A stretch of 64,000 nucleotides of DNA from positions 929,858-993,857 of the forward strand of contig OY969561.1 of the NCBI GenBank assembly GCA_963701085.1, read 5' to 3'. A model generated the notes under the pieces. It was not told the DNA's origin. It did no database searches and saw nothing but the letters and a program-made list of their open reading frames with translations. The DNA comes from an uncultured bacterium (GTDB lineage: Bacteria; Babelota; Babeliae; Babelales; Vermiphilaceae). Shown piece after piece: positions 169-60,379 of this stretch. A program made the translations under genes and the position numbers. The first letter of the stretch is position 1; every line of letters starts with the position of its first letter.

Positions 169-1518
169 TTATTTTTTAACCTGTTCTTTGTCAGCAATAA
201 TTTTTCTAAAAATTTCATCGAACTTTTGCTCATAGTTTCTTAACTGCGAATCAGTCGCTGCAGAATACCGGAATATTTTAACGCCTGATGACGGATTCAA
301 TAACACTGCTGGCGTAAAAATAAGACGCGCTTGAAAATTATTAATACCCTCAATTAACTCTGGATGATTGCGATAAAAATGGAGAAAGTAACGAAGACTA
401 AAATCCCCTGCCTTTACACGTTCCATCAAGTTTTTAAATATAGGATTGTTTTCCTGCTCATTTTTAAACAATGTTGAATAATAATCTAATGCAGAAGACG
501 TTTTAGGAAATACCGTCTTTTCTACACTATGCAACACCATATCCATAGTTTTTTTATGCGCAGGATTGCCGCGAATCCACGATATATAGCCAATCTCATC
601 AATGCGCTCTTTGGGAACAAAAACCTGCAATAGCATTTGCTCATTGGTTTTATACACATTAACAAGAGACATTAGTTCTTTAATATATTTATGTGGCAAC
701 TCAAACTTATCAAAAATTTTTTCATAGACTACACGGCTGGGAGCCAAATGCCCGCGTGATTTTATAAAATATTGCCAGGTACATTCCGGTTGCACCCCAA
801 CATTGCCAAATAACGCTACATTAGCTGCAAAAAGAAAAGAACCCAATTCATGATCATTAATTAAACCACCTGCTTTGAGCTTATCAATAAGAAAATTTTG
901 CACATTGGATGGCCCTCCAGATACATCTTCAAAACGCAAAAAAATAAAGCTTTTCAGTAACTCTGCTGGCAGATGCTTAAAATGAAAATATAATCGCGTG
1001 TAGAGATCTTGTGGAACACGCCACGCATTATCGGCACAATGATAAAAAACATAATAATCATCTTTATATTCCTTTTCACGCGCCAAAATTGTATCGATCA
1101 TCTTCTGGTATGGTTTTGTATCATAAGTAGATGAAATCAGTTTTTTTATATCCAGCAATGACATGTGCGCTTCAGATTGGGTAAACGTATCAGACGAACT
1201 GTAAGAAGCAGGAAAAACCTTGCCACCCCTTGTAACACCAGCACCCTGTCCATGCTCTGTTAATGCATGAATCTGCTCCAGTGATAATTTACCAGGTACG
1301 GCACTATCTGATCTCTTTTCTTCAACTACTTTTTCTGGAACATGTACCGCAATATTTTTTTCAGCAAGAGGCTTGGGGAGTGGAGATTGCTGCGGTGCTA
1401 TTTGATTTGTTTTAGTAAAAAGCGATTTTGAAACGGCAGTTTCCATAATCGTTAATAAAAACAGTGCCAACAAAATCACGCCTATTTTTTTATATACCGC
1501 ACGCAGATTAATCTTCAC
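169..1518 (-). CDS. secreted hypothetical protein, family A (only intact copy of three)
   Basis: 449-aa uninterrupted ORF with hydrophobic leader GVILLALFLLTIMET. Paralogous to decayed copies at 3260-4482 and 4475-5776 (LLQVFVPKERIDEIGYISWI vs LLQIFVPKNIVDDIAYLAWI; LLNPSSGVKIFRYS vs LLNPASGVKIFRYT). No catalytic motif recognised. Confidence 0.7.
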   Translation of the reverse strand: MKINLRAVYKKIGVILLALFLLTIMETAVSKSLFTKTNQIAPQQSPLPKPLAEKNIAVHVPEKVVEEKRSDSAVPGKLSLEQIHALTEHGQGAGVTRGGKVFPASYSSSDTFTQSEAHMSLLDIKKLISSTYDTKPYQKMIDTILAREKEYKDDYYVFYHCADNAWRVPQDLYTRLYFHFKHLPAELLKSFIFLRFEDVSGGPSNVQNFLIDKLKAGGLINDHELGSFLFAANVALFGNVGVQPECTWQYFIKSRGHLAPSRVVYEKIFDKFELPHKYIKELMSLVNVYKTNEQMLLQVFVPKERIDEIGYISWIRGNPAHKKTMDMVLHSVEKTVFPKTSSALDYYSTLFKNEQENNPIFKNLMERVKAGDFSLRYFLHFYRNHPELIEGINNFQARLIFTPAVLLNPSSGVKIFRYSAATDSQLRNYEQKFDEIFRKIIADKEQVKK

Positions 1519-1676
1519 ATGATCTCCTTTTTTGATACCTGCACCTCTTTGTATCTATCCTAATTGAAATTTCAATCACAAATCAATATTACCCAAACCC
1601 TTGTTATCAATTTTTAATTTCAATTAAAGTAACATAAGAGAATGGTTTTACATTTTTTCAAAAAAAGGGGGATGTT

Positions 1677-3190
1677 ATGACGAAAAATTTTCTAAAATCT
1701 CGTTATCTAAAACTATGTGTAGCTGCACTATCATGTGTTAGTCCCATTGAAAGTAAACAAATAACACCAGCAAACATACCGGTAAAAAAACAAACAATAT
1801 CTCCGGTGCAAGCACAGCCAATAACACCCCCTGTACAACCACAACCAAAGCCTATTTTAACCCCTCAGGGCAATGGTGTGCAGCCAACAAAAATGATCCT
1901 GAAATTTTAGATATTAATAAATCAGTCAAAGTAATTAATAATCAGCATGATTGTAATCCAGCCAAATAATAATAATCAGGAATCTGCATGCCAGTGCTGT
2001 TTAACCTATGGCAAAGGTCGCTTTGGAGAAGAACAAACAGCAGATCAAATTATTGATCATTGCACGAATAAATCAAAACAATGCAATACATCTTCTATAA
2101 GCAGTATCAAGAGAAAATATAATGCACAGAATATGTCTTCAGACGATTTTCTCAACACACTCTATAGCAACACTACCGTTGTACATAAAATGGCTATTAA
2201 TCCTGCATTAATAAAATCAAATGGGAACCTAACAGAAGATGGCTTGGCCAGCATATTGGCCCAGGCATACGATGAAGGAAAATTAAAAAATAAAGATTTT
2301 AATGCAAAACAATGCCTAGAGGTTAAATCTCTTGGTTCTGGAAGCGGCTATAATACCGTACAACTGTTTAGAGTAACTTCAACATGTACCCCATCAACAC
2401 CACCTCTTTTATACATTGTTAAAGAATCAAAAAAAGGACTCACCGAATCAACCCATCTTAAACAAATAGAAGAATATCCTGGGATGAAAGACCTCATTGC
2501 ACCAAAAATAGTCAAAGGCTTCCCAACTATATCATTGCCATTCTTTTATTTCTCCTATCATCCACACCACCAAAATATTCATTACATCGCAACAATGCCT
2601 GAGCAAAAGGCGATGTCTTATTTAAACTACTCACTCAATTCCGCGATAATAAATCAGGAGCAAATGCAGAAAGAATCAAAAAAGCATATGAAATTCTCGG
2701 AACAGAACTGGGTAATTTTCATAAAAATTTTATGACGCCAGTACCAGGAAAAAAAATTGGTACAACAGTCGCTCATGGAGACTTGCATGTTAATAATATG
2801 TTCTATGATGAAAAACAGGACATTTTACCTTTATTGATAATGAAACAATGGTGCGATGTTTCAAAAAACCAAAAGGCCCAAAAATTGATTTTATGCGATT
2901 AATATTCCCACCATTTTCAAGCAATGACACTATTTACCAATTTAAAGAAATCATTAAGGGTGTAAACCCTGGTACTTATCTTAATATAACACTCACGCCG
3001 TTTATTAAAGGATATATCTTTGCATACAATACCCAGGATAGACAACAATTGTTACATGATTTAAAAGAAGAATATTACGACCAATATTAAAGCTAAACCT
3101 TTAAATTTTCATCCTAGTTATATAGAAGAAATTAACACCAAATACATTAATCCAATATTTGATAACATTGAAAAAACATTGGGTAAATAA
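1677..3190 (+). pseudogene. secreted kinase-fold phosphotransferase (aminoglycoside/choline-kinase-like), several frame changes as sequenced
   Basis: Signal-like N-terminus plus P/Q-rich linker (1677-1910), then fragments in different frames (1947-2735, about 2735-2830, 2848-3090, about 3095-3190). Gly-rich loop LGSGSGYN, Lys in YIVKE, catalytic-loop motif HGDLHVNNMF followed by FTFIDNE. Tail ...NPIFDNIEKTLGK* ends at 3188-3190. Confidence 0.5.
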
Positions 3191-3199
3191 TTAATAAAA

Positions 3200-3247
3200 A
3201 TGAGAAAAAGAAAGCAATGCAGTCATGCTCTCTTTTTCTCATTTTTT
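3200..3247. terminator. bidirectional rho-independent terminator between convergent genes
   Basis: Perfect 12-bp stem ATGAGAAAAAGA (3200-3211) / TCTTTTTCTCAT (3231-3242), with an A-run before and a T-run after. Confidence 0.5.
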
Positions 3248-3259
3248 CATAAATGATTA

Positions 3260-4482
3260 TTATTTTTTTGATGCAACAATCTTCTGTATAATTTGATCTA
3301 AACGCTCTTCATATTTTTCCATTGATTTATGATCTACATCAGTATATCTAAATATTTTAACCCCAGACGCAGGATTTAATAAAATATCATCTGTTAAAAG
3401 CAAACGCGCCTGAGCATAATTAATACCATGTAAATCTTCTGGCTTATTACAATAAATCTTCAAATACGCATTGATACTATAATCACCCTTTTCAATATTC
3501 TGATCATTCTTTTAAATAAAGGATCTTTTTCCTGTTCTTTTTTAAATTTATCTTTTAATGCTGCCAATGCCATCATATTTCCCGATTTACCTGGTTCACC
3601 TTTATATTTTTTGCGTTTTACATTAGTACGAACCCAGTAGAAAATTCACCGTCAGCAGGAATACCGGTTATCCATGCTAAGTAAGCAATATCATCCACTA
3701 TGTTTTTGGGAACAAATATTTGCAAAAGAGACTCATGCTTTAAGAACACTCCATCAAATCCCATTAATTCATCAATATACGTATAAGATAGTCCAAACTC
3801 ATCCATTATAGCTTCATAATATGAGCGCTCCAGTTCCACATGAGACTTTTCTTCCATAAAATACGTCCATGTTGCTTCATTCTCAAAACCGGCATTTCCA
3901 AACGAGGTTATATTTGTTGACAACAACATCCCTGAGCTTCATTCTGATCATCAACAAGACCATGTGCTCTCAATTCTTTCACTAAAAACTCTTTTGCTTT
4001 GAGCTTACTCAACCCTTAGCCCTCAAAAGAACAAACTCTCCACTCTTTTGTGTTTTTGATCAATTAAAATGATGAGATAATCTTGTTAATGCATCTTGCC
4101 AAACCATCCATTTTTGAGAAGTCCCGTGATAAAACGCCCAATGGGTATTTTTAAATTCAGTCTCTTTTGTAATTACCCGAGAAATAATATCAAAATAAGG
4201 CACCACTTGCTTTGAATAATTTTCTTGAATAAATCTCTTTATTTTCTTCAACTGTAAATGCGCTTGTGTCGATTATATAAATCAGAGTAATTTGAGATTG
4301 AAGCTCTGTCAGATTTACCTCTTGAACTCCTGCATGCCGCGCTACCGTCTCTCGTTCTTTTTCTAATGCCATTTGCACAACAGGATTTTTAAGTTGTTTT
4401 GACAATACAGGTACAGTAGTCAAAAATGAGATAATAACAAAAAAAATTTTTATATACCAAATCTGTTATTTACGTTAAACAT
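3260..4482 (-). pseudogene. family A paralogue, decayed (at least 4 frame breaks)
   Basis: Fragments 3260-3463, 3618-3929, 4060-4251 and 4190-4423 are colinear with the 169-1518 protein (WAFYHGTSQKWMVWQDALTRL vs YVFYHCADNAWRVPQDLYTRL). The ATG at 4482-4480 overlaps the stop of the next copy (ATGTTTAA). Confidence 0.6.
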
Positions 4483-5776
4483 TTTCTTCTCCTTCTTTTT
4501 CAACGATTATTTCATCAATTATCTCATTTAACCGTTTATAGTATTCTTTTAATCTTTCCTTTGATACCGTTGAATAACGGTAAAACTGTACACCTGCTGC
4601 TGGATTCAATAAAACATCTGATAAAAAATAAGACGTACTTGTGTATTATTTATATCTGGCATTTCCCATGGTTTATTACGATAAGCTTTTAAATATCCAT
4701 TCACACTAAAATCACCCGCCTGAACACTTTCTATAAGATCTTTAAATAAAGGGTTTTTTTATGTTGCCTTTTTTAAATTGCTTCGCCAAGTCCTCCAGTT
4801 GCCATTCAGCAACGTGCTTACCCTCTTTATGTGTTAGTAGTTTTTTTTCATATACTTTTTTATCCAATCAATTGATTCTTCATGCAAAGGCATACCTTTT
4901 GACCATGACTGGTAACCAATATCATCAATTCTATTTTGCGGGACAAATATTTGAAGCAAGGTATTTTCTTTTGTGTCATACAATTCACAAGAGACAGTAA
5001 TTCATCAATATATTTATGAGTTAACCCAAATTTATCCATCATTTTTTCATAAATTTTGCGATCAGGAACTTTATGTCCTATATCTTTTAAAAAATAATAC
5101 CATCTACATGAAGTACATCTGTACCATTATTACCAAACAGTGATACGTTTACTGATAAAAGAATTCCCTTTAAATCTCCCATATCATTAACAATCCCATT
5201 TTTCTTTAATTCATCAATCAAAAATTCTTTGGCATTACGTTCAGGCAAATCCTAAATCTTAAAAAGGAAAAAGTCTTTCCAATTTTTTTTCCTGACGGAT
5301 TTTGCCGAATATATAACTGCGTATATACATCTGCGCAAGACGCCATTCATTATCAGTCGTATGATAAAAGGCATAATGATTGCTTTTCAATTCTTGTTCT
5401 TTTACCAAGCAATCAGAAATAATATTAAGATAAGGAATATATATCGGGAACTTGACTCTTCTGTAAGTAAATCTTTTATACGCGTAAGCTGTAAAAAGGC
5501 TTCTGTTTGCGTAAATTGATCTGATGTTCCTTGTGCCTGAACAACTCGCACTGGGGCTACCTGCGGTACTTTTGGTGCTATAGGAGCACCTATAAAAGGT
5601 TTTGATTCTATTTGAGGAATTTTTACAACAGGCTTTACTGCCCCCGACTGCACCTGTTTACCCTCAACCCCACCAAAAAACGATAGCAAGGCTACAAATA
5701 AACTTATCCGGCCCTGCCTTAACAAATTTTTAATTAACTGCTTCCGACTACCCTCTCCCCCTTTTAAATGCATCAC
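4475..5776 (-). pseudogene. family A paralogue, decayed
   Basis: N-terminal fragment 5402-5776 (leader LFVALLSFFGG; FTQTEAFLQLTRIKDLL vs FTQSEAHMSLLDIKKLI). Internal fragment 4860-5042 (MMDKFGLTHKYIDELLSLVN vs IFDKFELPHKYIKELMSLVN). C-terminal remnant ...NPAAGVQFYRYS...EIIVEKEGEENV* ends at 4475-4477. Confidence 0.55.
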
Positions 5777-8959: not shown

Positions 8960-9316
8960 TTATTGATTTTCTCTTGCCTTTATACGTCTATTCTCTTCTT
9001 TTGCAAGATCCCAATATTTATCAATAGTCTCGTCTATTTCCTGATAAGTATAAGGTTTATTCCCGTAATATACTTCTTCAAATCCTTTAAGTCTTGCACG
9101 TACTTTGTTTAAGTATTTCGTATCTGGAAAAAAATTTTGAGACTTTGGATCAAGAACGTCAGAAGTCATTTTGATTTCACGTTGTATCCATCTTTTAGTT
9201 TCTTCATTCAAATAAGGATTTACTGTTCGACGTTCCATTGCAGTTATTTGAACTGCTGCAAATAATGTGATTACCAGGGCTACGCCTGTGCTAAGATATT
9301 TTTTTGTGTTTTTCAT
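8960..9316 (-). CDS. small secreted hypothetical protein
   Basis: The ORF-track ORF runs to 9358, but AGAGGAG lies 8 nt before the ATG at 9316 (MKNTKKYL...). Leader ends ...AAVQITAMERRT. Confidence 0.55.
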   Translation of the reverse strand: MKNTKKYLSTGVALVITLFAAVQITAMERRTVNPYLNEETKRWIQREIKMTSDVLDPKSQNFFPDTKYLNKVRARLKGFEEVYYGNKPYTYQEIDETIDKYWDLAKEENRRIKARENQ

Positions 9317-9613
9317 AAAAAAGCTCCTCTTTTTTGAAAATGATACTATATCTATCACTTATAACACTATCTAATTCTGATTCAATTTGTCAATAAAAAT
9401 TAAATAAATGTTGGAACTCTATGAAAATGTCACCTCTGAACTATAGAAAAATATCACATTTGGATGGTGTAAATATAGGCAGTCGCCTTTTTATGGTAGG
9501 ATATGGTAGGATGGGTTAAAACCTTCAAAATTTAACCTATAAACCAAAAAAACTGGTAGAAAGAAATCACCTTCTTTACCCATTTTTCATATTTTTTAGG
9601 CAACAATAAGCTC

Positions 9614-9822: not shown

Positions 9823-12321
9823 ATGGAAAAAAGATACGACCATCAATTATGTGAAGCGGCGGCGCAACAAAAATGGGAAACGGATAAAACCTATGCAATG
9901 GAAAACAATCCAGGACCATTATACAGCATAGATACCCCCCCTCCAACAGTTTCTGGGACACTGCACATTGGTCATATATTTTCTTATACACAAACCGATA
10001 TCATTGCCCGCTACAAACGCATAAACGGTTACTCTGTTTTTTATCCCTTTGGATTTGATGATAACGGCCTTCCAACAGAACGTTATGTGGAAAAAAAACG
10101 CAATGTTCGCGGGCATGAAATGTCCCGTTCAGAATTTATCAGCTCTATGCATCCAAGAATCTCATGAAGCCGCTGAAATATTTAAAAAATTATGGCAAAA
10201 AATGGGACTTTCTGCTGATTGGAGTGAGACATATTCAACCATATCAGATGATTCCCGCAAAATATCGCAAGAATCATTCATTGAACTGTTTAATAAAAAT
10301 TATATCTACCGCAAACAAGAACCAGCTTTATATTGCACAACCTGCCGCACATCCGTTGCACAAGCAGAACTTGATGATTTGCAAGACTTACCATCATTTT
10401 TCAACGGATATTATTTTTAAAGATAGTGATGGCAATGATCTGATTATCGCAACAACACGCCCTGAACTACTTCCTGCATGCGTTGCAGTACTCTATAACC
10501 CTGATGATGTTCGTTACACACATTTACATGGTAAAAAAGCAATTGTGCCTCTTTTTGGTCAAACTGTGCCTTTTATTACCTGATGATTTAGTTGCAATCG
10601 ATAAAGGCAGCGGCCTTGTGATGGTGTGTACCTTTGGTGATAAAACAGACATCATTTGGTACAAAAAACACAACTTACCCTATCGCCATGTTATTGGTCT
10701 TCGATGGCAAATGCACTGATAATGCTGGTTTTTTACAAGGTCTTAAAGTTGCAGATGCACGTGTAAAGGTTATTGAAACATTACGTGAACAAAATCTTTT
10801 ACCACGGCAACAACCAATTACGCATTCAGTTAACGTTCATGAACGGTGCAAAAAAGAAATTGAATACACTATTTTGCCACAATGGTTTAGTCAGTATTTT
10901 ACCATACAAAGACAAATTTTTAGAAATGGCTGACAGCATCAATTGGTACCCAACATTTATGAAATCTCGCTACAATGATTGGGTAGAAAATTTAGCATGG
11001 GATTGGGGAATATCTCGCCAACGCTTTTATGGCATTCCATTCCCTGCATGGCACTGCCAAGATTGCGGCAAAATCTTACTTGCGCATCCTTAATCAACTG
11101 CCTGTTGATCCACAAGAAACACCGCATTCCGGCCCTTGCCCTGATTGCGGTAAAAGCAATATCAAACCTGATACTGATGTTATGGATACATGGAATACAT
11201 CATCATTAACGCCGTACATTTGTTATGACGTCTTTCAAAAAATTAATAAAGTTCGTCTTACAAGTCCTTTCGAAGAAGACGCCCTGCGTAGCTGGGGCTC
11301 AAATGTCCATGCGCCCACAAGCACATGATATCATCCGCACCTGGGCATTCGATACCATCGTAAAATCATGGATGCACAACGGAATCGCTCCATGGAAAGA
11401 TATTGTTATTTCTGGTCACGTGCTCGCTGATAGTAAAGAGAAACTTTCAAAATCAAAAAGCAATGCGAGGCATGGATCCGGTGACTTATTACTCCAACAA
11501 TATCCTGCCGATGCAATTAGATACTGGACAACTTCAGGAAGACTTGGTCAAGACATGATGTTCTCAGAAGAACAACTTAAAATTGGCCAAAAATTAATCA
11601 CCAAGATGTGGAATGTTTTTCTTTTTGCACAACCACACTTGGTAAATTTTGTAAAACACCGCATACTACACCTAATCAAATTGGCGCGATTAACAAATGG
11701 CTCTTGCACACGATCTCTGCATGCTTTGAAAAATATCAGCAATACCTTGAACAACATGAATTTGGTTTAGCGCTCAACATGATCGAACAATTTTTCTGGA
11801 GCAACTTCTGCGACAATTACCTTGAACTGATTAAAAATCAATTATTTAATCCTGAACAATATAAAGCTGAATGGAAGTGGAAGCAACGCGTTGGACATTG
11901 TACCATGCAGGATTGCGCATACTGCAACTGTATTCACCATATTTGCCGCATATCACGGAAACAATCTATCATGAACTATATGCGCAACATGAAGCCCTAC
12001 AATCTATTCATCAAACACGTTACCAGGATGTACAAACTCCGTATGTATTTGCAGCTGAAGCAGAAATTATTAATGCCGTTATCGCAATTGCAACACAGGT
12101 ACGTAAATTAAAATCAGAAAAACAACTATCACTCAAAACACCGCTGACCACCATGAATGTTTTTACTCAAACACAATCAGTGACAATCAACAATTGAACA
12201 ACATGATCAGTTGATCCGTGGCATTACGCAGGCAGTGTCTGTTGTCGATGCAGCTCATAGTGGCCAAATTTCACGCTTCACCGAAAAAGATGGCGCATGG
12301 CATGCTGAGGTGGTGCTCTGA
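9823..12321 (+). pseudogene. valS: valyl-tRNA synthetase, 10 frame changes as sequenced
   Basis: Eleven colinear fragments: PPPTVSGTLHIGH (HIGH), [74 protein letters not shown] (KMSKS), ...AWHAEVVL* with TGA at 12319-12321. Frames (start mod 3) run 1,2,0,1,2,0,1,2,1,0,1. Confidence 0.85.
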
Positions 12322-35273: not shown

Positions 35274-35291
35274 TTTTATTGGAAAACAATA

Positions 35292-39279: not shown

Positions 39280-39286
39280 GATAAAA

Positions 39287-47528: not shown

Positions 47529-48022
47529 CTAACCTGTTAATACACAGCACGCGCCAATTATGCAGCCAACGCATGTGCAGATGGGTAATCCATACCACAT
47601 CATATCATTCATAACTCTCACTGGTGTAAAAATATCACACCAGAAGCACATACACCCATCTAATATAGTATATGCACACATTCCATTAGCACCACTCATC
47701 AAACCAAAACAACTCCCACGTCCTGCTCCTTTGAGTACACGAGCACATCTATCAGAAGTTGCGGCATTTTTCTTTGTATTTCGGTACCATAGAACGAGTT
47801 ATCTCGTGTGTTTTTATAGGTTACCCATAAATCAACTTCCACCAATTCTTCATCCTGCTTACATAGCCTCTGTATACATTTAATAGTTCTATCCTGAGCT
47901 TCTTTTGGCAATGATGTTATGACATAATGCATCAATGGAATCTTTGAAGGAACGATGTCCATAGAATGCAACATAGATGATATACATAATAAGATAGTAT
48001 AAAAAACCCTATAAATTAACAT
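47529..48022 (-). pseudogene. small secreted protein with a Cys-rich hydrophobic tail, one frame change as sequenced
   Basis: Leader ..CISSMLHSMD (47699-48022). A second frame continues ..GAGRGSCFGLMSGANGMCAYTILDGCMCFWCDIFTPV...GLPICTCVGCIIGACCVLTG* to TAG 47531-47529. The span is not a multiple of 3. Confidence 0.4.
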
Positions 48023-49340: not shown

Positions 49341-50348
49341 TTAAATAATATGTTTATCACAACATTGTTTAAAATCTGTGTTGTTATCCTGCTTTCTTTG
49401 AAAATTCAAGAGCATAAAATAACAACATTTCTTTCTACTATCTTCCTGAGAAACTGTTGAAATAGTAAAATCTTTGCTGGGAGCACATTGCTCAAAAAGC
49501 CTGTGTGCTACCTCAAGAAAGATTTTTTGTGCTAACGCAAGAGGATTTAATGTGTCTTTATTTTTTGCAAATGTAATGTAATTTTTTCCTATAAAAGTAT
49601 ACAACATATCAGACAAGTGGCGTGATACAAGCATATGAGTGAATGTATTCTCTTCTGCGTCCCGTATTTCCTGATAAATTTCTGATAACACAATAGGCTT
49701 TTCTATAAGGTCTTGTTGCGATACTACACCTTGTCCTGAAAAATATTTTGATGCATCCTCTTTTATAAAATTAGTACCATGCTTTATATGCTCAAACTCT
49801 AATGTCACTATTTTCTTTAAAAAACATCTTCGATGATTATAGTTAAAACCAACCTTGTCATAGCCAGCAATTAATTTAGTAAATATCTTATAAGATTCCT
49901 CTCTATTGCCTTCCTCTGCATTCGGCATTAATTGATCAATACAAAGATCAATGGGTTCTTTACCAGCATTATTTGGCATACTCAATGAATATTTCATACA
50001 ATCAATCACCCATTCTGTCATTTTTAAATCTCTATGTTTTACTACAATGTGTGCAAAAGTATTCCCTTCTGCATCATATACATCTCTATGTAAACACTTA
50101 CTGAGAAAAGATAAATTTTCCTTGTTTGTCATCTTAGCATAGGTATTCTTTATGTTCTGCATATCATCATAGCTAAAAGATTCTTTTTTATATTCCGTTA
50201 AACGATTACCTAAATATTTTTTAAAATCATTTTTTATTATTTCTTTAGCATCTCCATCACTCTCATAATTAAAAGCTGTATCAAACTCCATAGAATGCAG
50301 TGTAACACTACTCAAAAGTAAGCAAGAAAGTAATTGTATATTCTTCAT
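49341..50348 (-). CDS. family C secreted protein (intact copy)
   Basis: Leader ..SSVTLHSME. Two DAEGNTFAHIVV / DAEENTFTHMLV segments. C-terminal KCCYFMLLNF...QCCDKHII. Confidence 0.6.
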   Translation of the reverse strand: MKNIQLLSCLLLSSVTLHSMEFDTAFNYESDGDAKEIIKNDFKKYLGNRLTEYKKESFSYDDMQNIKNTYAKMTNKENLSFLSKCLHRDVYDAEGNTFAHIVVKHRDLKMTEWVIDCMKYSLSMPNNAGKEPIDLCIDQLMPNAEEGNREESYKIFTKLIAGYDKVGFNYNHRRCFLKKIVTLEFEHIKHGTNFIKEDASKYFSGQGVVSQQDLIEKPIVLSEIYQEIRDAEENTFTHMLVSRHLSDMLYTFIGKNYITFAKNKDTLNPLALAQKIFLEVAHRLFEQCAPSKDFTISTVSQEDSRKKCCYFMLLNFQRKQDNNTDFKQCCDKHII

Positions 50349-50448: not shown

Positions 50449-51066
50449 CTAAAACAGTGACTCTTCAGCATTAAACTTAAGCCAAAAGAGCAATTTTCCT
50501 ATATAATTTTTTAACTCTTTTGATATCTCTAACGCAAAATATGCATAACAGATGGGATATATTTCCTTTATGATGGATGGTGCGCATTCTTTAAATTTTG
50601 TAAAAAATACCACTTCCCTGTCTTGTGCTGTTGGCTTAAAATCATAGCTCAATAATGTTTGTATACACTCTTTTTTTACTGCAAAGGGTGCCGTTGCCAT
50701 TGTTATTATACCCAAAGCAGAACATTCTTTTATTCGTTCATTACAATAAAGTTGTATATAAAATTCCCCTTTCTGCATAAGCCCTCTCTCAAAATCATCA
50801 TAAGTTTTTGCAGTATAAATAGAATACAAAAAAAGAGATGCTGCTGGAGACCATCCTCTGACAACATGCCCATTATGACGCTCATATAGCTCATTTTTTA
50901 TTGTTAATATAACATTTTCGCATTTTAATTTTTTAACGAACAAAGACTCAGAAATTTGTTTTAAGTCGGATTTTTTCTTCAGCACTACCATTTCCATACA
51001 TCCTGTTATAGTGGAAAATAAAAAGAATAGTAACACCATCAAAAAATGAGTTTTTTTATGTATCAT
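50449..51066 (-). CDS. secreted hypothetical protein
   Basis: Leader ..FSTITGCME. No motif recognised. Confidence 0.5.
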   Translation of the reverse strand: MIHKKTHFLMVLLFFLFSTITGCMEMVVLKKKSDLKQISESLFVKKLKCENVILTIKNELYERHNGHVVRGWSPAASLFLYSIYTAKTYDDFERGLMQKGEFYIQLYCNERIKECSALGIITMATAPFAVKKECIQTLLSYDFKPTAQDREVVFFTKFKECAPSIIKEIYPICYAYFALEISKELKNYIGKLLFWLKFNAEESLF

Positions 51067-51158: not shown

Positions 51159-52073
51159 ATGCTCCGTAAACATACCATCAATAAAAAATTTTTCCTCATA
51201 ATAATAACTACACTTTTTTTCACCAACATAATCGCCAAAAATTTACCTATCGTGCTTGTTCATGGAATATTTTCGGATGAATATACCATGGTTCCTGCAG
51301 AAAAACATATCCAAGAATATCTTCCTGATGTATACGTTAAAAATATCAGGCTTGGTGAAGGAAGAATAACATCACTCTTTAACATGCATGATCAAGTTGA
51401 ATGGCTCAAACAAGAAATGGAAGCTGATGAACAACTGCAAGATGGTTGCATAATAGTTGCACATTCTCAAGGCGGTCTTGTTGCCCGTTACTTTATTGAA
51501 AAATACAACAACCCGCGTGTGTATATCTATATTGCATGGGGAACTCCTCAAGCAGGAATATTTGGAGCACCAGACAAAATTGATACGTATATTCCATGGT
51601 TAAAAATATTACAACAAATTTCTTATAAATTTGCATACTCCTCATTAATGCAACGACTTATCAGCTTTGCCGGCTACTGGAAACATCCTTTGCATTATGA
51701 AAAATATTTACAAGGCTGCACCTTCTTACCCTTTGTAAACAATGAAATAGATCATGCGGATGCCGCATTATTTAAAGAGAACATCTGCAATCTTGCATGC
51801 ATGGTACTTGTGCTATCAACACAAGATGAAGTTGTTGTTCCTGTTTCATCATGTCATTTTGGATTTCATCCAATAGGATTCCCACAAGAAATTGAAGATC
51901 TCTTTGATTCTCAATGGTACAATGATGATGCCCTGGGACTCAAAACACTTGCTGAAAGTGGTCGATTACACCTCAAATTTGCTCACTGTCCTCATTCAGA
52001 ATTACAATCAGACGAGTACAACTTTGTAGAAAACACATTGCCTTATTTAATATATGAGGTGCCAGTAACATAA
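51159..52073 (+). CDS. secreted palmitoyl-protein-thioesterase-like alpha/beta hydrolase
   Basis: Signal peptide. LPIVLVHGIFSD, nucleophile elbow AHSQGG, GTPQAGIFG, C-terminal WYNDDALGLKTLAESGRLHLKFAHCPH. Order and spacing recall eukaryotic PPT1 (..WHG..., FSQGG, GGQHQGV, ..D.LGLK.....G.L......H). Confidence 0.6.
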   Translation: MLRKHTINKKFFLIIITTLFFTNIIAKNLPIVLVHGIFSDEYTMVPAEKHIQEYLPDVYVKNIRLGEGRITSLFNMHDQVEWLKQEMEADEQLQDGCIIVAHSQGGLVARYFIEKYNNPRVYIYIAWGTPQAGIFGAPDKIDTYIPWLKILQQISYKFAYSSLMQRLISFAGYWKHPLHYEKYLQGCTFLPFVNNEIDHADAALFKENICNLACMVLVLSTQDEVVVPVSSCHFGFHPIGFPQEIEDLFDSQWYNDDALGLKTLAESGRLHLKFAHCPHSELQSDEYNFVENTLPYLIYEVPVT

Positions 52074-52223: not shown

Positions 52224-52973
52224 ATGCCCTACCTCTATGTAGCCAACTGGAAAATGAATCTCTCTTTTACTCAAAGCATCAACTTCTGCAAAAATAATCT
52301 TGATGCATTACAACAATTATCAAGTGACACCACTGATATTGTGCTCTGCCCTTCTTTTATTGCACTTGCACCAATTGCTGAAATTTTTAAAAATCATTCT
52401 ATTGCCATTGGCGCACAAGATTGTTCAGAACATGAATCTGGAGCCTATACGGGCGAAGTTTCTGCTGTATCACTTGCAGAAATTGGTATCAAATATTGCA
52501 TAGTTGGCCACAGCGAACGACGCATGTACCATCATGAAACGACTGAAAAAATTGTTAAAAAAATAAAACTTTTGTATGCAGACACTATTATACCCATTAT
52601 CTGTATTGGTGAAGCACAAGAATATTTTGAATATAAAAAAACATATACCATACTAACTGAGCAACTAGAACCAATACTTACTACAATAGCTCAGCAACAG
52701 GAACACTCAAAACATCTTATTATCGCCTATGAACCCATCTGGTCAATTGGCACTGGTATTATTCCAACGCCACAACAACTTACTGCTGTATGTGCATGGA
52801 TTACGGAGCACATAAAACTGCACCTACCTGACCATACCATGCAACTTCTGTATGGGGGCAGCGTTAATCAAAACAATATCGCAACATTAAAAAAAATACC
52901 GCCAATCAATGGTTTTTTGATTGGCGGTGCAAGTACTGATTTTGAGCAGTTTAAAAAAATAATTACCTTATAA
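52224..52973 (+). CDS. tpiA: triosephosphate isomerase
   Basis: ANWKMN, GHSERR, YEPIWSIGTG, YGGSV. The ORF-track start 52116 lies inside the RE-B palindrome, so ATG 52224 (MPYLYVANWKMN) is preferred. Confidence 0.9.
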   Translation: MPYLYVANWKMNLSFTQSINFCKNNLDALQQLSSDTTDIVLCPSFIALAPIAEIFKNHSIAIGAQDCSEHESGAYTGEVSAVSLAEIGIKYCIVGHSERRMYHHETTEKIVKKIKLLYADTIIPIICIGEAQEYFEYKKTYTILTEQLEPILTTIAQQQEHSKHLIIAYEPIWSIGTGIIPTPQQLTAVCAWITEHIKLHLPDHTMQLLYGGSVNQNNIATLKKIPPINGFLIGGASTDFEQFKKIITL

Positions 52974-54062
52974 ATCTTTTTTTATTAATTGACCAATACG
53001 ATTACCAATAATTCTCTCAAGATTCTTTCGTGGAAAACCTTCAATAGCTTTAAACGCTTTTGAATCTGATAAATTAACCAATTCAGCAACCCTTATGTAA
53101 CTATTATCAAAAGCTTTTTGGCAAAGGTATGATGCTACTTCTGGTCTTTTGAATAACACTATCGCTTTACGATTATGAGCAACGTCTATCGGAAAAAATT
53201 CTGAATCAATAGGCATATAAGAATTAGTTACCATAGCACAATAATTATCATGCTTATCACTAACTCTATACCTCTCTTCAAATATGCAAGAATAACCTCC
53301 TAGTAAAGCATTATTCTTATGTTCATAATCAACATAGTTATGCCCATTAACCCATTCTATACTTTCAATTTGTAGAGAATTGATTATCTCCCCTGTTTTC
53401 ATATCCCATATTGAATGAATATTATTATCATCAGTTGCTCGCAAATATTTACCATTAGCAGACATACCTAAAGAAGATGGTTCTATATTTCCATGAGGAC
53501 CATATAAAACAGTAAAATGTATATCCGATAACAACGTTGGCATAATAGCTGTTAATTTCTTATTAATGTCCTTACCAAAAAATAATTTAGAAGCACCATT
53601 AGAAGCAATTCTTTGTGCGCCATTGTCATCACTATCAACATGCAACTCATCATCATACAGCTTATCGATAGTAAGACCTGTGATATCGTCTAATTCCTCA
53701 GTCTTTTTATACACCAAAGCCTGCATTAAATAATTCACGTACCAATGCTGCGCAACAAGCTTTTGCAATACACTCTTTTTATCCATATCTTTTGTAATAT
53801 AGGACTCTATCTTATTCATCTCATCTGTAGCTTTTTGATACGTTAACAATTTATTTTTATACCAACTTACACATACACCAATCAATTTCCTAAAACAGAC
53901 ATCCTCATTAATTCCTAAATGATCTCTATCAATTATATCACGAATATCCGCCGCATATATATCAGAATTAAGCTTGTTAACATCTTCATATTTCATTGCA
54001 AACAAACAAAAAGAGTTAAGCATTACAATATACAAAAAAGAACGTTGTAGTCTTACCATCAA
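52968..54062 (-). CDS. secreted hypothetical protein (364 aa)
   Basis: Leader ..NSFCLFAMK. Stop overlaps the tpiA stop by 6 nt (convergent). No motif recognised. Confidence 0.55.
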   Translation of the reverse strand: MMVRLQRSFLYIVMLNSFCLFAMKYEDVNKLNSDIYAADIRDIIDRDHLGINEDVCFRKLIGVCVSWYKNKLLTYQKATDEMNKIESYITKDMDKKSVLQKLVAQHWYVNYLMQALVYKKTEELDDITGLTIDKLYDDELHVDSDDNGAQRIASNGASKLFFGKDINKKLTAIMPTLLSDIHFTVLYGPHGNIEPSSLGMSANGKYLRATDDNNIHSIWDMKTGEIINSLQIESIEWVNGHNYVDYEHKNNALLGGYSCIFEERYRVSDKHDNYCAMVTNSYMPIDSEFFPIDVAHNRKAIVLFKRPEVASYLCQKAFDNSYIRVAELVNLSDSKAFKAIEGFPRKNLERIIGNRIGQLIKKDL

Positions 54063-54086: not shown

Positions 54087-54899
54087 TTAATCCACTTTTT
54101 CTTTTCCAACATCAACAATACTACTTTCCATTTCTGTCAATGAGATAAAATCCTTTGCTCTAAACCCATGTCGCTGATCTTCTTCTTCATCTGTTTCTCT
54201 TAAATAATCATTAATTTTTGAGCTCAAACCAAGATAACAACCCAACGGTATTAAAAGTGGAATAGGTATACATTCACTGGGAGGATTCAACATAAACCAA
54301 AGATAACATTGTAAAAAACAGCAACTATACATTCCGCAACATGCCACATTATGTCTTACATGGTCTTTATTATCCCATAAAGCATTCATGAAAACATCTT
54401 TCATATCCGATGGTTGTCCATAACATACATTGCGCGTCATACTTGTACCATATTTTTCAGCAATTTTTTGTCTTACCTTCAGCGGCAAACCTATAACACG
54501 TTCTGCCATTTTATGTGCAAAATATCTATCTCCCCCTTCTATTCTCAATTTTTCACTATTTTTTACCGTTTTCAATACATACCATAATGTTTGTTTATTC
54601 TCTTCATTTAAAAACGAAATATCACAAACACTCTCAAAAATTTTACTATATTTTGTTGTTATTTTTTGTTCAGATATTTTTACATTATTATTGTTTTTTT
54701 CAGACAAAAAATAGGGATATGCTCGGTCATCCTTTTTACCAAAACAACAGAGACTTTTTTCATCTCTTCTCTTATATTCCCAATCTTGCTCTATCTGTCC
54801 AACTTGTTCCATAGCCTGCAGAGAAAAAGAATAGCTTAACAACATTACATTGAACGTAAAAAGATATAAAAAAGATTGCTTAATACATTTCACCATCAA
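54087..54899 (-). CDS. family D membrane-anchored secreted protein (distant member)
   Basis: Leader ..YSFSLQAME. DWEY...YPYF, LWYVLKTV, IEGGDRYFAHKMAERVIGLPLKVRQKIAEKYG are colinear with the two following paralogues. C-terminal TM region. Confidence 0.55.
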   Translation of the reverse strand: MMVKCIKQSFLYLFTFNVMLLSYSFSLQAMEQVGQIEQDWEYKRRDEKSLCCFGKKDDRAYPYFLSEKNNNNVKISEQKITTKYSKIFESVCDISFLNEENKQTLWYVLKTVKNSEKLRIEGGDRYFAHKMAERVIGLPLKVRQKIAEKYGTSMTRNVCYGQPSDMKDVFMNALWDNKDHVRHNVACCGMYSCCFLQCYLWFMLNPPSECIPIPLLIPLGCYLGLSSKINDYLRETDEEEDQRHGFRAKDFISLTEMESSIVDVGKEKVD

Positions 54900-54977
54900 A
54901 AACTCCTTTGGAAAAAATTAAAATGTTATCATTTTATAGCATAGGTATTGGAAAAAGTCATCGTTAAAAACACAAAA

Positions 54978-54996
54978 ATCCAACAGATTGTTGGAT
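54978..54996 (-). terminator. hairpin terminator after 55039-55944
   Basis: ATCCAACAGATTGTTGGAT palindrome. On the minus strand it is followed by TTTTGTGTTTTT. Confidence 0.45.
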
Positions 54997-55038
54997 TCTT
55001 AACCATGCTCTCAATGGACTTTTTTTTATCAAATACTT

Positions 55039-55944
55039 CTATTTTTGAACAATCTCATATTCCATTTCTTGCAACAAAGGAATTTTCACTAACTCAGTTC
55101 GATATTTTTTGTCTTCAGGTGTTTCATATAACCAATAAAGAACACTTTTTTTCAGACCAAAATAAAACAATATAGTTGTCACCACCATAGTTGTCACCTC
55201 TGAAAAATCTGGTACTGGCCCACCACCTAAAATCTCCCATAAAATAGCTTGAGGTGGAATTGAAAGAAGAGATGCCATGCTTGCCGAGGAATATGCAAAA
55301 AAATTCTTAGCCTCTTCATCATCCAAGCTCCACCTAGCCCCGCATATTGGTTGATTATGTAGACTACTTTCCATTGTTTCACCATACTTTTGAACAATTT
55401 TTTTTCTTATTGATAAAGGCAAATTCAAAATATTTTGAGACATTTTTTGTGAGAAATCTTTATCTAATCCTTCTATTATGATCCGCTCTCTACCTTCTAC
55501 ATCATGCAACACATACCATAATCCTTGTTTCTGTTCTTTTTTTAAATACAAAATATCAAATGTAGTAAGATTAAAAACTTGTTGGCTTTCCTGTATTAAT
55601 AGTTCATCAGGCGAAATCATTTCTGCATAACCTGCATAACAATACTCTAATATTTTATTTGTTACATCGCGTGGAATGCCTACATCTTGCATTGTTTTTG
55701 CCCAAAGCAATTCATCACAAAAAGAACGCTTTAATTGATCCCTATCTTTTTTGGGTATAAAATATGGATATTGAGGCCTATTTCCTCCAGAAATGATTTT
55801 ATCCAAACAACCTGTACGATATTCCCAATCCCCATAAACTTCCATATCCTGCATTTCTTTTGGATCCCTCGCCCTTTTCATCGCTTGTAAAGAAATGGAA
55901 ATAGTCACCAAGCCTATTATTAAAAAATTAACATGATGCATCAT
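55039..55944 (-). CDS. family D membrane-anchored secreted protein
   Basis: Leader MMHHVNFLIIGLVTISISLQAMK. GDWEYRTG, YPYFIPKKDRDQ, GLWYVLHDV, IIEGLDKDFSQKMSQNILNLPLSIRKKIVQKYG. C-terminal YWLYETPEDKKYRTELVKIPLLQEMEYEIVQK. Confidence 0.6.
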   Translation of the reverse strand: MMHHVNFLIIGLVTISISLQAMKRARDPKEMQDMEVYGDWEYRTGCLDKIISGGNRPQYPYFIPKKDRDQLKRSFCDELLWAKTMQDVGIPRDVTNKILEYCYAGYAEMISPDELLIQESQQVFNLTTFDILYLKKEQKQGLWYVLHDVEGRERIIIEGLDKDFSQKMSQNILNLPLSIRKKIVQKYGETMESSLHNQPICGARWSLDDEEAKNFFAYSSASMASLLSIPPQAILWEILGGGPVPDFSEVTTMVVTTILFYFGLKKSVLYWLYETPEDKKYRTELVKIPLLQEMEYEIVQK

Positions 55945-56018
55945 AAAAAACCTTACATCCTAAACTGTTGCATATAATGTAAAATGTTCCCAATGGACTT
56001 TTTTTTTATCAAATACTT

Positions 56019-56900
56019 CTATTTTTGAACAATCTCACATTCCATTTCTTGCAACAAAGGAATTTTCACTAAATTAGTTCGATATCTTTTTTCTTCAGGT
56101 GTTTCATATAACCAATACAGAATACTTTTGTTCAGGCAACAATAAAACAATATAATTGCAGAACAACGTTGTTCTGCCCCAAAACCTAAAGCATCCCATA
56201 AACAACTTTGAAGTGGAATTGAAAAAAAAGATACCGCTTTTGCCAAGCAAGATGCAAAAGAAGCCTTATTTTCTTCATCATCCAAGCACCCCCTAGCCCC
56301 GAATCTTGGCGTATTATGTAGACTACTCTCCATTGTTTTACCATACTTATGAACAATTTTTTTTCTTATTGATAAAGGCAAACTCAAAATATTTTGAGAC
56401 ATTTTTTGTGAAAAATCTTTATCTAATCCTTCTATTGTAATCTGATTTCTATCCCCTACATCATGCAACACATACCATAATGCTTGTTTCTGCTCTTTTT
56501 TTAAACACAAAACATCAAGTGTAGTAAGATTAAAAACTTGTTGGCTTTTCTGTATTAATGGTTCATTAGACAAAATCATTTCTACATAACAATACTCTAG
56601 TATTTTATTTGTTACATCGCGTGGAATACCTACATCTTGCATTTTTTTTGCCAAAAGCAATTCATTGCAAAAAGAACGCTTTGATTGATCCCTATCTTTT
56701 TCGGGTACAAAATATGGATATCGAGGCCTATTTCTTCCAACAGTAAATTGATCCAAAACACCTGTATGATATTCCCAATCCCCATAAGATAGTCTTCTTG
56801 CTTCTATAGCCAGCATTTCTTCTCTCGTTCTTTTCATCGCTTGCAAAGAAGTGGAAATAGTCACTAAGCCTATTATTAAAAAATTAACATGTTGCATCAT
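56019..56900 (-). CDS. family D membrane-anchored secreted protein (recent duplicate of 55039-55944)
   Basis: Same architecture. By analogy with its twin the start is MMQHVNFLIIG (56900), not the ORF-track start at 56927. Confidence 0.6.
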   Translation of the reverse strand: MMQHVNFLIIGLVTISTSLQAMKRTREEMLAIEARRLSYGDWEYHTGVLDQFTVGRNRPRYPYFVPEKDRDQSKRSFCNELLLAKKMQDVGIPRDVTNKILEYCYVEMILSNEPLIQKSQQVFNLTTLDVLCLKKEQKQALWYVLHDVGDRNQITIEGLDKDFSQKMSQNILSLPLSIRKKIVHKYGKTMESSLHNTPRFGARGCLDDEENKASFASCLAKAVSFFSIPLQSCLWDALGFGAEQRCSAIILFYCCLNKSILYWLYETPEEKRYRTNLVKIPLLQEMECEIVQK

Positions 56901-56957
56901 AAAGAACCTCAAAAATATAGTAACCATTCTATTAATATCACGAATTATATCATATTT

Positions 56958-58610: not shown

Positions 58611-58624
58611 AAAAGAACTTCGCC

Positions 58625-59420
58625 ATGAAAAAAGAGAACTCCAGCAAAACCAAAATTAAAATTATCGATTTACAAAAAGAATTTGAGGGCCATTGGGTTA
58701 CTCGAGGAGTCAATCTCGATATCCCTGAAGGATTAATGACGGTGATCATTGGTCGATCAGGCGAAGGTAAATCAGTATTACTCAAGCAAGTTATTGGGCT
58801 CATTAAGCCAACATCAGGAACTATTATTGTTGATGGCATGGATATCACCAAACTGTCTGGTGATGAATTAAATGAATGCTACAAAAAATTTGGCTATGTA
58901 TTCCAGTTTGCAGCACTTCTTGATTCACTTCAATGTTTTTGAAAATATTGGCATAACGCTTATTGAACAAGGCATATCACATGCGCAAATTTTGCCTATT
59001 GTTAAAGAAAAATTAAAATTAGTACAATTATCAGAAGACACCTTAGAAAAATATCCCTCAGAACTATCTGGTGGTATGAGAAAACGTGTTGGATTAGCGC
59101 GCACACTAGTCGCTAATCCTGAAATTATTTTATACGACGAACCTACAACCGGCCTTGACCCTATCACTTCTCGCGTTATTCACGAACTCATGTTTGATAT
59201 GCAAAAACGTCTCAAAATAACCTCTGTTATTATTTCTCATGATGTGGAAACATTTAAATATGCAGATAAAGTTGCGCTGCTGCATGATGGAGAAATTAGA
59301 TATTTTGGTGATGCAAAAACAATATGGGAATCAGATAATCCATATATCTATCAATTTATCCGTGGATTAACTGAGGGTCCCATTACTAAAGAAATTACTT
59401 ATTTTAAAGATAAAGAGTAG
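58625..59420 (+). pseudogene. mlaF: MlaF-family ABC transporter ATP-binding protein, one frame change as sequenced
   Basis: Walker A GRSGEGKS (58625-58942). [23 protein letters not shown] (58872-59420). The junction ..[18 protein letters not shown] is restored by removing one base near 58930. Confidence 0.85.
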
Positions 59421-59443
59421 CCGATATACCATTTTTCTTTAAA

Positions 59444-60379
59444 TTACTGTCTAATTTTACCACCATGCTTTTCAAACAAACTAATGATGGCAGTAAGTGT
59501 GTCTTTTTCATAAGACATTACGTGATCACGATCTAATCTTTTGCATGCTGAACTAAGAGGAGTATCTCCATTCTCATTTGTCGCATTAATTAATTCAGGA
59601 GCAGCTTTAAGTAATAACTTACCAATTCTTACATAATCAACACTGCTTACTGAATAGCTCCATCCACAACAAACAAGCTTATGCAATACACAATCCCCAG
59701 TTAGAGTTTTTCTTTTTTTTGCATCAACATTGTGAGTCAGATAAAACTCTATCAATTCGGGCGAACAATGATGTAAGATAGTGTACCATAAAACATTTGG
59801 CTCATGATAGCCTTCTGCATTCACATCAACACGATCAATAAACATTTCTAATATATCAACATTTTTTATAACAAACCAATCTGGATCTTCATATAAACCT
59901 TGCTGATTTGGATTAGCATTATTCTCAAATAACGCAGCAATCATCTCTTTATCTTTTCGATATATTGCTCGCTGAAGTAAAGAATCCCTGCTGCATACAG
60001 CATTATCAGCACCTGCATACACTAATAAGAATGCCGCACGGCGTTTATTCCAATACGTTATATCATTCATACTTTGTAACAATTTTTTCATAACTTTATT
60101 TTTTTCTGCAATATTGTAGTTTTTACAGAATTTACCGACCATAGCAGGTGATATCAGTTCATTAAAATGCTTGCAGGTAGTGCTTAACGCTAAAGTAGTT
60201 TTAACAGTATCTTCTAAGAATTTTCCATTACAGATAATTGGTATTACCATCTCATGAGGCAAGTCTGGCAATGTAAGTGTCCTTTCCATGCCAGATATAT
60301 GCATAGAAGTCATTAAAAAAGTCATTGCTAATAATGCAGTAACAGTAATAGTCTTGCTCGTCATGTAAAAATCTTTCAT
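59444..60379 (-). CDS. secreted F-box-like plus ankyrin-repeat protein
   Basis: Leader ..TSMHISGME. LTLPDLPHEMVIPII....LALSTTCKHFNELI fits the F-box pattern (LP.E....I......L.L..V.K.w..L). ANK-like LVYAGADN, LFENNANPNQ, TPLSSACK. Confidence 0.6.
   Translation of the reverse strand: MKDFYMTSKTITVTALLAMTFLMTSMHISGMERTLTLPDLPHEMVIPIICNGKFLEDTVKTTLALSTTCKHFNELISPAMVGKFCKNYNIAEKNKVMKKLLQSMNDITYWNKRRAAFLLVYAGADNAVCSRDSLLQRAIYRKDKEMIAALFENNANPNQQGLYEDPDWFVIKNVDILEMFIDRVDVNAEGYHEPNVLWYTILHHCSPELIEFYLTHNVDAKKRKTLTGDCVLHKLVCCGWSYSVSSVDYVRIGKLLLKAAPELINATNENGDTPLSSACKRLDRDHVMSYEKDTLTAIISLFEKHGGKIRQ

Follow-up and report, generated by a model that had tools for sequence, protein, structure and literature searches.

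The Genes Carrying the Junction

The DNA analysed in this work (the window) is a stretch of 64,000 nucleotides of contig OY969561.1 from an uncultured bacterium. The subject of the analysis is a junction shared by the products of twenty of its open reading frames (ORFs), in which a hydrophobic N-terminal leader ends directly before a methionine that is usually followed by a charged or amide residue. The window belongs to the lineage Candidatus Babeliales (Dependentiae/TM6): the relatives of its MnmE protein are 63–96% identical, and several of them are labelled 'Candidatus Babeliales'. Dependentiae is a phylum of obligate intracellular protist parasites (PMC4378268, PMC6561590). The G+C content across the window is 31–38%, and housekeeping genes alternate with islands of orphan genes.

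The twenty junctions listed in a preliminary description of this DNA were all present in the sequence, each at its ORF. Most of these ORFs are orphans, weak matches (ankyrin, DnaJ-like or NUDIX-like) being limited to a few. In what follows, an arrow marks the predicted cleavage site, the residue after it being +1 and the residue before it −1.

Concerning the plus strand, a DnaJ-like ORF at 13423–13965 (leader 13426–13500, Met codon 13501–13503) has the junction ...LYPTIFS↓MKTMDDFK, and its homologue at locus L005 (6793–7494) retains ILS↓MDE. The ORF at 14005–14694, with its likely start at 14116, encodes ...STAALHS↓MDHPEDNQ (leader 14116–14184, Met codon 14185–14187). The NUDIX-like ORF at 17871–18722 (leader 17871–17945, Met codon 17946–17948) encodes ...IRNITC↓MESIQTFD, and the adjoining paralogue at 18744–19517 has a signal peptide without the Met. 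An ankyrin-repeat ORF at 24979–25860 (leader 24979–25038, Met codon 25039–25041; ...CVQQTQS↓MEKQLITN) has its paralogue at 25985–27058 (leader 25985–26044, Met codon 26045–26047; ...FTPHIFS↓MEENSLQQ). Near-identical hairpin-plus-T-run terminators (…CCGGGGATTTTTTAT) occur at 24900–24915 and 25888–25912, ahead of these two ankyrin genes, each of which is therefore apparently its own transcription unit, leader included.

The remaining fifteen are on the minus strand. The ORF at 169–1518 (leader 1447–1518, Met codon 1444–1446; MKINLRAVYKKIGVILLALFLLTI↓METAVSKS) has no Pfam match and is the weakest member of the set, because its −1 residue is Ile (LLTI↓ME), unfit for signal peptidase I; the small −1 residue of the preliminary description holds for most junctions and fails at this one. 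Two short ORFs, 3618–3929 and 5402–5776, share SDxFTQxEA and FVPK…IxYxxWI with this 449-aa protein and are probably its decayed paralogues. The ORF at 8960–9358 (leader 9239–9316, Met codon 9236–9238; ...AAVQITA↓MERRTVNP) has GAGGAG upstream of its leader ATG.

Three more belong to a run of four tandem signal-peptide genes (30683–33817) for proteins of about 200–240 aa that contain, as 31310 does, long internal hydrophobic stretches. They are a membrane-protein-like ORF at 30683–31282 (leader 31214–31282, Met codon 31211–31213; ...GANSTFA↓MGTQEREI), the ORF at 31310–32041 (leader 31985–32041, Met codon 31982–31984; ...VFSTAS↓MLPMQQLT) and the ORF at 32271–32948 (leader 32892–32948, Met codon 32889–32891; ...IALATSS↓MLPMSDSE); the fourth, 33122, lacks the Met junction. 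The layout recalls vacuole-membrane (Inc-like) proteins. In 31310 and 32271 the Met at +1 stood, while its placement had to be moved: the junctions are better read as STAS↓MLPM and ATSS↓MLPM, three residues before the position first proposed, which would put Pro at −1.

The ORF at 44031–44765 (leader 44712–44765, Met codon 44709–44711; ...FAFYSHA↓MDLPTLSL) contains an F-box-like LPLELQ motif, and an identical copy of its protein is present on the independent 2-kb contig L001. An ankyrin-repeat ORF at 59444–60379 (leader 60290–60364, Met codon 60287–60289; ...TSMHISG↓MERTLTLP) has homologues in L012 that retain A↓MQ and A↓MD. An F-box-like LP.E… motif lies shortly past the Met junction in both 44031–44765 and 59444–60379 (LPLELQGKIIKDF, LPHEMVIPIICNG), and neither protein was matched by the Pfam F-box.

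Between these two genes lie a short ORF at 47699–48022 (leader 47963–48022, Met codon 47960–47962; ...CISSMLHS↓MDIVPSKI) and the ORFs at 48544–49224 (leader 49162–49224, Met codon 49159–49161; ...THVTLYC↓MEQPQQDS), 49341–50348 (leader 50292–50348, Met codon 50289–50291; ...SSVTLHS↓MEFDTAFN), 50449–51066 (leader 50998–51066, Met codon 50995–50997; ...FSTITGC↓MEMVVLKK) and 52968–54062 (leader 53997–54059, Met codon 53994–53996; ...NSFCLFA↓MKYEDVNK). They are followed by the ORF at 54087–54899 (leader 54813–54896, Met codon 54810–54812; ...YSFSLQA↓MEQVGQIE), which is about 30% identical to those at 55039–55944 (leader 55882–55944, Met codon 55879–55881; ...TISISLQA↓MKRARDPK) and 56019–56927 (leader 56838–56900, Met codon 56835–56837; ...TISTSLQA↓MKRTREEM), the latter being a recent duplicate of 55039. 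Concerning 50449, the sequence ITG-C-ME is present as first described, and a lipobox with Cys at +1 (ITG↓C) fits it too.

Enrichment of Methionine at Position +1

ORFs were called with a home-made caller, and signal peptides were sought by two scans. Scan 1 relied on the n-region, the hydrophobic core and the first charge, leaving the −1 and −3 residues out of account; scan 2 took the best (−3,−1) site and never looked at the residue at +1. The comparison set was formed by 80 loci from an MnmE-profile scan of species-representative genomes, all the named ones being Dependentiae/TM6/Babeliales, with each related genome sampled over about 20 kb around mnmE. A contig scan of genomes with the window TpiA returned no relative, and an exact look-up of the window MnmE found no record of it. 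Two sets of Met-bearing proteins (carriers) were used, 90 defined by scan 2 (Met at +1) and 123 defined by the motif.

With scan 1, the residue before the first charge was Met in 15/33 N-termini of the window and in 89/572 of those of the other loci; at the scan 1 sites the −1 residue was A/S/G/C in 75/89 (84%), although unselected, and the −3 residue was L/S/I/V/T/A. With scan 2, the +1 residue was Met in 14/26 signal peptides of the window (binomial p 8e-18, for a background of 1.9% Met) and in 76/344 (22%) of those in the 80 other Dependentiae loci, which gave a pooled value of 90/370 (p 2e-69). When Met was counted by position from −8 to +12, it amounted to 24.3% at +1 and to at most 5.4% everywhere else. 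The motif [ASGC]M[EDNQK] was present at residues 13–40 of 135 among 605 signal-peptide-like N-termini, versus 26.5 ± 4.4 in shuffles and 14 occurrences in residues 61–88 of the same 605 proteins.

The preliminary description had proposed random hydrophobic segments as the standard of comparison for the +1 Met; after internal hydrophobic segments Met was only 3.7%, versus the 24.3% of the junction. An artefact of AT-rich, hydrophobic composition is ruled out by that low value and by the housekeeping signal peptides devoid of the Met. The same script, run on 150 kb of E. coli K-12, found Met at +1 in 0/20 signal peptides while retrieving the known sites of SurA, LptD, DegP, BtuF, ThiB and Yad fimbrial proteins, which rules out an artefact of the script. 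The E. coli result also bears out the earlier claim that the pair formed by Met at +1 and a charged or amide residue at +2 lies outside the generic Sec signal.

Anatomy of the Junction and Class of the Signal

The consensus of the junction is [L/V/I]-[H/F/Y]-[A/S/G/C]↓M-[E/D/N/Q]-x-P. The frequencies at +2 were E.37, D.16, N.14, K.09 and Q.09, with E/D/N/Q/K reaching 85% and E/D/N/Q 76%, and both hydrophobic and small residues were depleted. Pro was 4.3-fold enriched at +4, in a mature start that is disordered, acidic and Pro/Gln/Ser-rich. The leaders contain K/R in the n-region and an uncharged core with a mean Kyte-Doolittle hydropathy of at least 2; their length is 13–31 aa with a mode of 20 in the 123 motif-defined carriers. 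All twenty window leaders, as had been said of them, look like Sec/signal peptidase I signals, with a K/R n-region, a hydrophobic core and 18–28 aa. In their anatomy the leaders are thus those of genuine Sec-type signal peptides, and the predicted signal peptidase I site sits directly before the Met.

Other classes of signal were considered and rejected. A lipoprotein (signal peptidase II) signal does not fit a +1 residue that is Met, with Cys occurring only at −1 in 12–14 carriers; the lipobox [LVI][ASTVI][GAS]-C fits 50449 (ITG-C) only. A Tat signal does not fit either, as RR was present in 0/20 window leaders, nor does a type IV prepilin leader, as the Met comes after the hydrophobic segment and is itself followed by polar/acidic, Pro-rich sequence. 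The phytoplasma SVM family (PF12113) had no match among the twenty window proteins at E <= 0.01, and their leaders are mutually dissimilar.

An explanation in terms of DNA rather than protein was likewise discarded. The leaders do not derive from a single duplicated cassette, in agreement with the preliminary description: apart from a 13-nt match of 47699 with 49341, leader DNA is similar in 55039/56019 only. The description of the twenty as unrelated families was right for the most part, the ORFs falling into at least 16 BLAST-distinct families, and too broad for 24979/25985 and 54087/55039/56019, which are related. Synonymous codons at −1 and +2 track genome-wide usage, and conservation is no more than the amino acids dictate, which rejects a DNA-level motif. 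No −10-like pattern was found upstream of the ATG.

Conservation and Spread across the Phylum

BLAST grouped the 90 carriers into 61 families, and the junction has many independent origins. When the ankyrin family of 25985 was searched against 1.84 billion cluster representatives, the Met followed the leader directly in 32 of the 40 members in which a leader was called, down to about 25% identity, and the losses of Met were mostly to Ile. In the family of 49341, LH[SGC]↓M was kept in 17/17 full-leader homologues with 34–92% identity, and there is free variation from +2 to +10. The syntenic copies beside mnmE display the same pattern of conservation. Purifying selection at the protein level acts on the Met at +1 together with a bulky acidic or amide residue (sometimes Lys) at +2.

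The motif was present in 49/80 related loci and occurs throughout the sampled Dependentiae; L070 shows it in strain Noda2021. Its share of signal peptides drops with distance from the window, expressed as MnmE identity to the window protein: it was 38% in the window, 28–29% where MnmE is at least 60% identical and 13–15% where MnmE is 52–59% identical. No account of the motif in Dependentiae was found in the literature, subscription-only journals being outside the coverage of the search. Signal peptides were reported on 79/126 ankyrin proteins of Babela (PMC4378268) and on 44% of the coding sequences of Chromulinavorax (PMC6561590); in the papers on these two organisms, signal peptides are described as abundant on ankyrin proteins, and the junction goes unmentioned.

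The carriers differ from the remaining signal-peptide proteins in their own distribution. The mean number of other loci with a homologue was 0.9 for carriers and 10.1 for the remaining signal-peptide proteins, and homologues in at least 20/80 loci were found for no carrier, versus 17% of the other signal-peptide proteins. Ankyrin repeats (Pfam Ank_2) were matched in 28/123 carriers versus 3/123 other signal-peptide proteins (p 1e-6), while OmpA matches were at most 1 in carriers versus 20 in non-carriers, and the Met is absent from conserved envelope proteins. The motif is restricted to an accessory, ankyrin-rich secretome. The preliminary suggestion that it marks an effector-like repertoire is sustained by the accessory, ankyrin-rich character of the carriers and by the occurrence of the motif across Dependentiae.

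Window proteins with signal peptides devoid of the Met include the substrate-binding protein 40859, and also 33122 and 27061. Another one is a eukaryote-type palmitoyl-protein thioesterase (PF02089, E 3e-56) at 51159–52073, the signal peptide of which is followed by Lys at +1 (IIA↓KNLP). The eukaryotic homologues of this enzyme act in the lysosome lumen, a location consistent with a need for the Met in cytosol-directed proteins only.

Start Codon and Origin of the Methionine

A Shine–Dalgarno (SD) core at −18 to −5 was found before 44% of the leader ATGs of the Met class and before 53% of those of other signal-peptide genes; it was found before 0/90 internal ATGs, i.e., those coding for the Met of the junction, and before 4% of random internal ATGs. 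The upstream purine content was 0.40 for the internal ATGs versus 0.64 for real starts. Local mRNA folding gave −9.4 kcal/mol at the internal ATG, −9.2 at random internal ATGs, −9.0 at non-Met junctions and −5.5 at real starts. The native second residues of the lineage (K.28, I.15, N.08, also L/S) are unlike the +2 residues of the carriers. Translation starts at the leader ATG.

It is worth noting that public gene calls begin some genes of the ankyrin family at the +1 Met (L082 8995–11014, L086 401, L088 158 and L089 401), and that in L082 both neighbouring paralogues are called from the Met despite an in-frame upstream signal peptide. Leaderless homologues were considered as evidence of a modular origin and rejected, since P0005, P0141, P0144 and P0145 all have intact in-frame leader DNA. 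As the calls start at the Met while the leader is intact in the four cases checked, secreted effectors are being mis-annotated, and recorded in annotation, as leaderless cytoplasmic proteins.

These data bear on three alternative views of the Met. One of them, already raised in the preliminary description, takes the internal AUG as a second initiation site giving a cytoplasmic isoform that lacks the leader and has the same sequence as the mature secreted protein. Met alone among the residues doubles as a start codon, its placement makes both products identical, and about half of the genes of the lineage lack an SD core anyway; against this stand the total lack of SD cores before the internal ATGs, their low purine content, folding equal to that of random internal AUGs and not to that of real starts, a +2 codon spectrum unlike that of native starts, and the fact that the bacterium has no obvious need of ankyrin proteins in its cytoplasm. 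The second start is thus highly improbable, and this part of the preliminary description was not upheld. It could also be thought that the Met is a relic, a former start codon to which a signal peptide was added later by 5′ extension or fusion. The young, lineage-restricted character of the carriers agrees with that origin, as do the ease with which AT-rich upstream sequence encodes hydrophobic residues and the fact that the mature protein equals an ORF starting at ATG. Nevertheless, the Met is kept at 25–35% identity while its neighbours diverge, the E/D/N/Q preference at +2 is not that of native starts, such an exact coincidence with the (−3,−1) site would not be expected, and the four Met-started database homologues all have an intact leader in the DNA, so that a relic is very improbable. 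Finally, the leaders could be uncleaved signal anchors, or the upstream extension could be untranslated, with the Met as the only start. The frequent choice of the Met by gene callers (P0005, P0141, P0144, P0145) and the Ile at −1 of ORF 169 would agree with this, but SD cores occur before the leader ATG and not before the Met, the frame, n-region and h-region are conserved in homologues at 25–90% identity, the unselected small −1 residue in 84% of sites points to cleavage, and the short cores and the peak of leader length at 20 aa are typical of cleaved signals. It is hardly credible that the leaders are uncleaved or untranslated.

Other Features of the Window

Concerning the rest of the window, the housekeeping genes recognized in ORF translations are tyrS, truB, mnmE, those of RNase G/E and a DEAD-box helicase, tpiA, secG, mlaEF, that of dCTP deaminase and moxR. 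The single RNA gene, according to Rfam and ARAGORN, is tRNA-Gly(GCC) at 15531–15605. A type II secretion system (T2SS) protein C, with T2SSC and PDZ matches in Pfam, is encoded on the plus strand at 62248–63354; no other component of post-Sec export was seen in the window.

Several essential housekeeping genes are split into overlapping ORF pieces: leuS (9823–12197), ruvA (14773–15382), gatB (22189–23433), uvrC (46226–47511) and mlaF (58625–59420). The leuS gene is broken into at least 6 pieces, and most of the zones of frame switching contain A/T homopolymers of 5–8 bases. Errors of long-read assembly fit these observations, a real pseudogenisation of leuS being the other possibility. The apparent frameshifts in the housekeeping genes of the window assembly leave all the leaders untouched.

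Two AAA-ATPase ORFs (PF00004) are located at 34228–36505, the second apparently truncated, and a small ORF then follows; beside them may be cited the expanded family of Babela in which AAA is fused to a Ulp1-like peptidase (PMC4378268). At 37891–39908 there is a 462-aa orphan without a signal peptide, followed by overlapping ORFs of about 100 aa at 39287–39589 and 39582–39908, none of the three with a Pfam match; this arrangement resembles a toxin with small partner proteins.

Proposed Role of the Methionine Junction

The reading favoured here, which is held with somewhat more confidence than doubt, is that the leaders are genuine Sec/signal peptidase I signals and that, on host-directed proteins, they are followed by a Met-acidic mature N-terminus under selection, the function of the Met being one that we infer. 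Cleavage at the predicted site would give mature proteins beginning with Met-Glu or Met-Asp, an end that would resemble the ordinary unprocessed N-terminus of a cytosolic protein. The Met would be retained on such ends because methionine aminopeptidase needs a small second residue, and, under the established rules of N-terminal processing, they would not act as a Met-hydrophobic degron, nor would their first residue be a destabilising one. An N-terminus of this kind could shield Sec-processed effectors inside the host, or mark them for a later step, and it would suit proteins that need to survive in the host cytosol after Sec/T2SS export. The depletion of hydrophobic and small residues at +2 fits this view. 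In Legionella, T2SS substrates do arrive in the host cytosol (PMC5478897).

Several points weigh against that proposal. The cleavage sites are predictions by a home-made (−3,−1) rule and not by SignalP, literature searches found no Dependentiae proteome data, and the 150 kb of E. coli used as the sole outgroup control leave an upper 95% bound of 14% on their 0/20. The protective function of a native-looking N-terminus is something that we infer from established rules; since Ala, Ser, Gly or Thr at +1 would be equally stabilising, the choice of Met specifically is not fully explained by it. No partner enzyme was identified in the roughly 20 kb sampled per related genome, unlike the case of the glutaminyl cyclase of the Bacteroidetes Q-rule discussed below. 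Moreover, some carriers (30683–32948, 44031 and 54087–56927) have hydrophobic C-terminal or internal segments, and these proteins may never be soluble in the host cytosol.

The main rival to a role in stability is that the small residue followed by Met-Glu or Met-Asp would be a tag for a step after Sec, such as the selection of T2SS or vesicle cargo, or cleavage by a dedicated paralogue of signal peptidase; the sequence data would fit both. Such a tag would be in line with the limitation of the motif to accessory, effector-like proteins and its absence from conserved envelope proteins, with the enrichment of Pro at +4 and the disordered, acidic mature start, and with the T2SS C gene of the window, T2SS being the sole secretion system found in Babela (PMC4378268). 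On the other hand, no partner gene was identified in the sampled DNA, and the motif is just two residues long. It also counts against a tag that, to our knowledge, no N-terminal linear T2SS signal exists in any bacterium. On balance a tag of this sort is a possible explanation but an improbable one. A further proposal takes account of the eukaryotic NatB substrates, which begin with Met-Asp, Met-Glu, Met-Asn or Met-Gln: the junction of a small residue with Met-[Glu/Asp/Asn/Gln] would be a phylum-wide effector code, in which cleavage creates an N-terminus identical to those of NatB substrates, so that effectors exported by Sec and T2SS, once in the host cytosol, would be acetylated at the N-terminus by the host or would at least evade its N-degron pathways. 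This is put forward tentatively, as a rather unlikely extension; if true, the motif would be enough to identify the set of host-cytosol effectors in this almost uncultured phylum.

Returning to the selected Met-acidic N-terminus, its interest lies in the organisms that carry it. Dependentiae are widespread intracellular parasites of protists, and we know of no dedicated effector injection system in them. A simple mark separating the host-directed secretome from housekeeping exports would allow effectors to be predicted in hundreds of metagenome-assembled genomes, and would open a way to study the action of Sec-exported proteins inside the host.

Comparison with Known Systems

Compared to the generic Sec/signal peptidase I signal (von Heijne −3,−1), the leaders of the carriers have the same n-, h- and c-regions, 18–28 aa and small residues at −1 and −3. 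The difference is that a preference for Met at +1 is foreign to the generic signal, as seen in E. coli and in the conserved envelope proteins of Dependentiae themselves. In lipoproteins, the +2 sorting rules of the lipobox and the lipoprotein export signal of Bacteroidetes involve Cys at +1 and signal peptidase II. There too what happens to the protein later depends on the residues right after cleavage, which are often acidic; here, however, +1 is Met, and only 50449 (ITG↓C-ME) can be read as a lipobox.

The Plasmodium PEXEL and the oomycete RxLR are host-targeting motifs of eukaryotic secretory pathways with their own proteases. Like the junction described here, they are short motifs near the end of the signal peptide, common to unrelated effectors, and in PEXEL the new N-terminus x-E/Q/D matters. 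Nevertheless, they are located 15–30 residues past the signal peptide and contain no Met, while the present motif occupies +1 and +2. The phytoplasma SVM signal (PF12113) is a whole conserved leader on unrelated effectors. In both cases many unrelated secreted effectors of a reduced intracellular bacterium share a feature of the leader, but in phytoplasma the entire leader is conserved, whereas in Dependentiae the leaders diverge and the junction alone is conserved.

The closest analogue is the Q-rule of Bacteroidetes, by comparison with which the junction of Dependentiae amounts to an 'M-rule'. Under the Q-rule, most signal peptidase I substrates have Gln at +1, which is cyclised to pyroglutamate by glutaminyl cyclase, and the resulting N-terminus has been shown to stabilise extracytoplasmic and exported proteins (PMC5837995, PMC10653852). 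Both are phylum-specific preferences for a single residue at +1 of ordinary Sec/signal peptidase I signals, and in both that residue defines the mature N-terminus. They differ in the residue, which is here Met with a coupled E/D/N/Q preference at +2 and no enrichment of Gln at +1; in coverage, as the Met junction affects 13–38% of signal peptides, within an accessory, ankyrin-rich set only, and the Q-rule affects the majority, housekeeping proteins included; and in that the Q-rule has a modifying enzyme, glutaminyl cyclase, while the Met junction is known from predicted sites alone. The junction of Dependentiae would add to the Q-rule a second +1 rule specific to a phylum, and would suggest that tailored mature N-termini are a recurrent adaptation.

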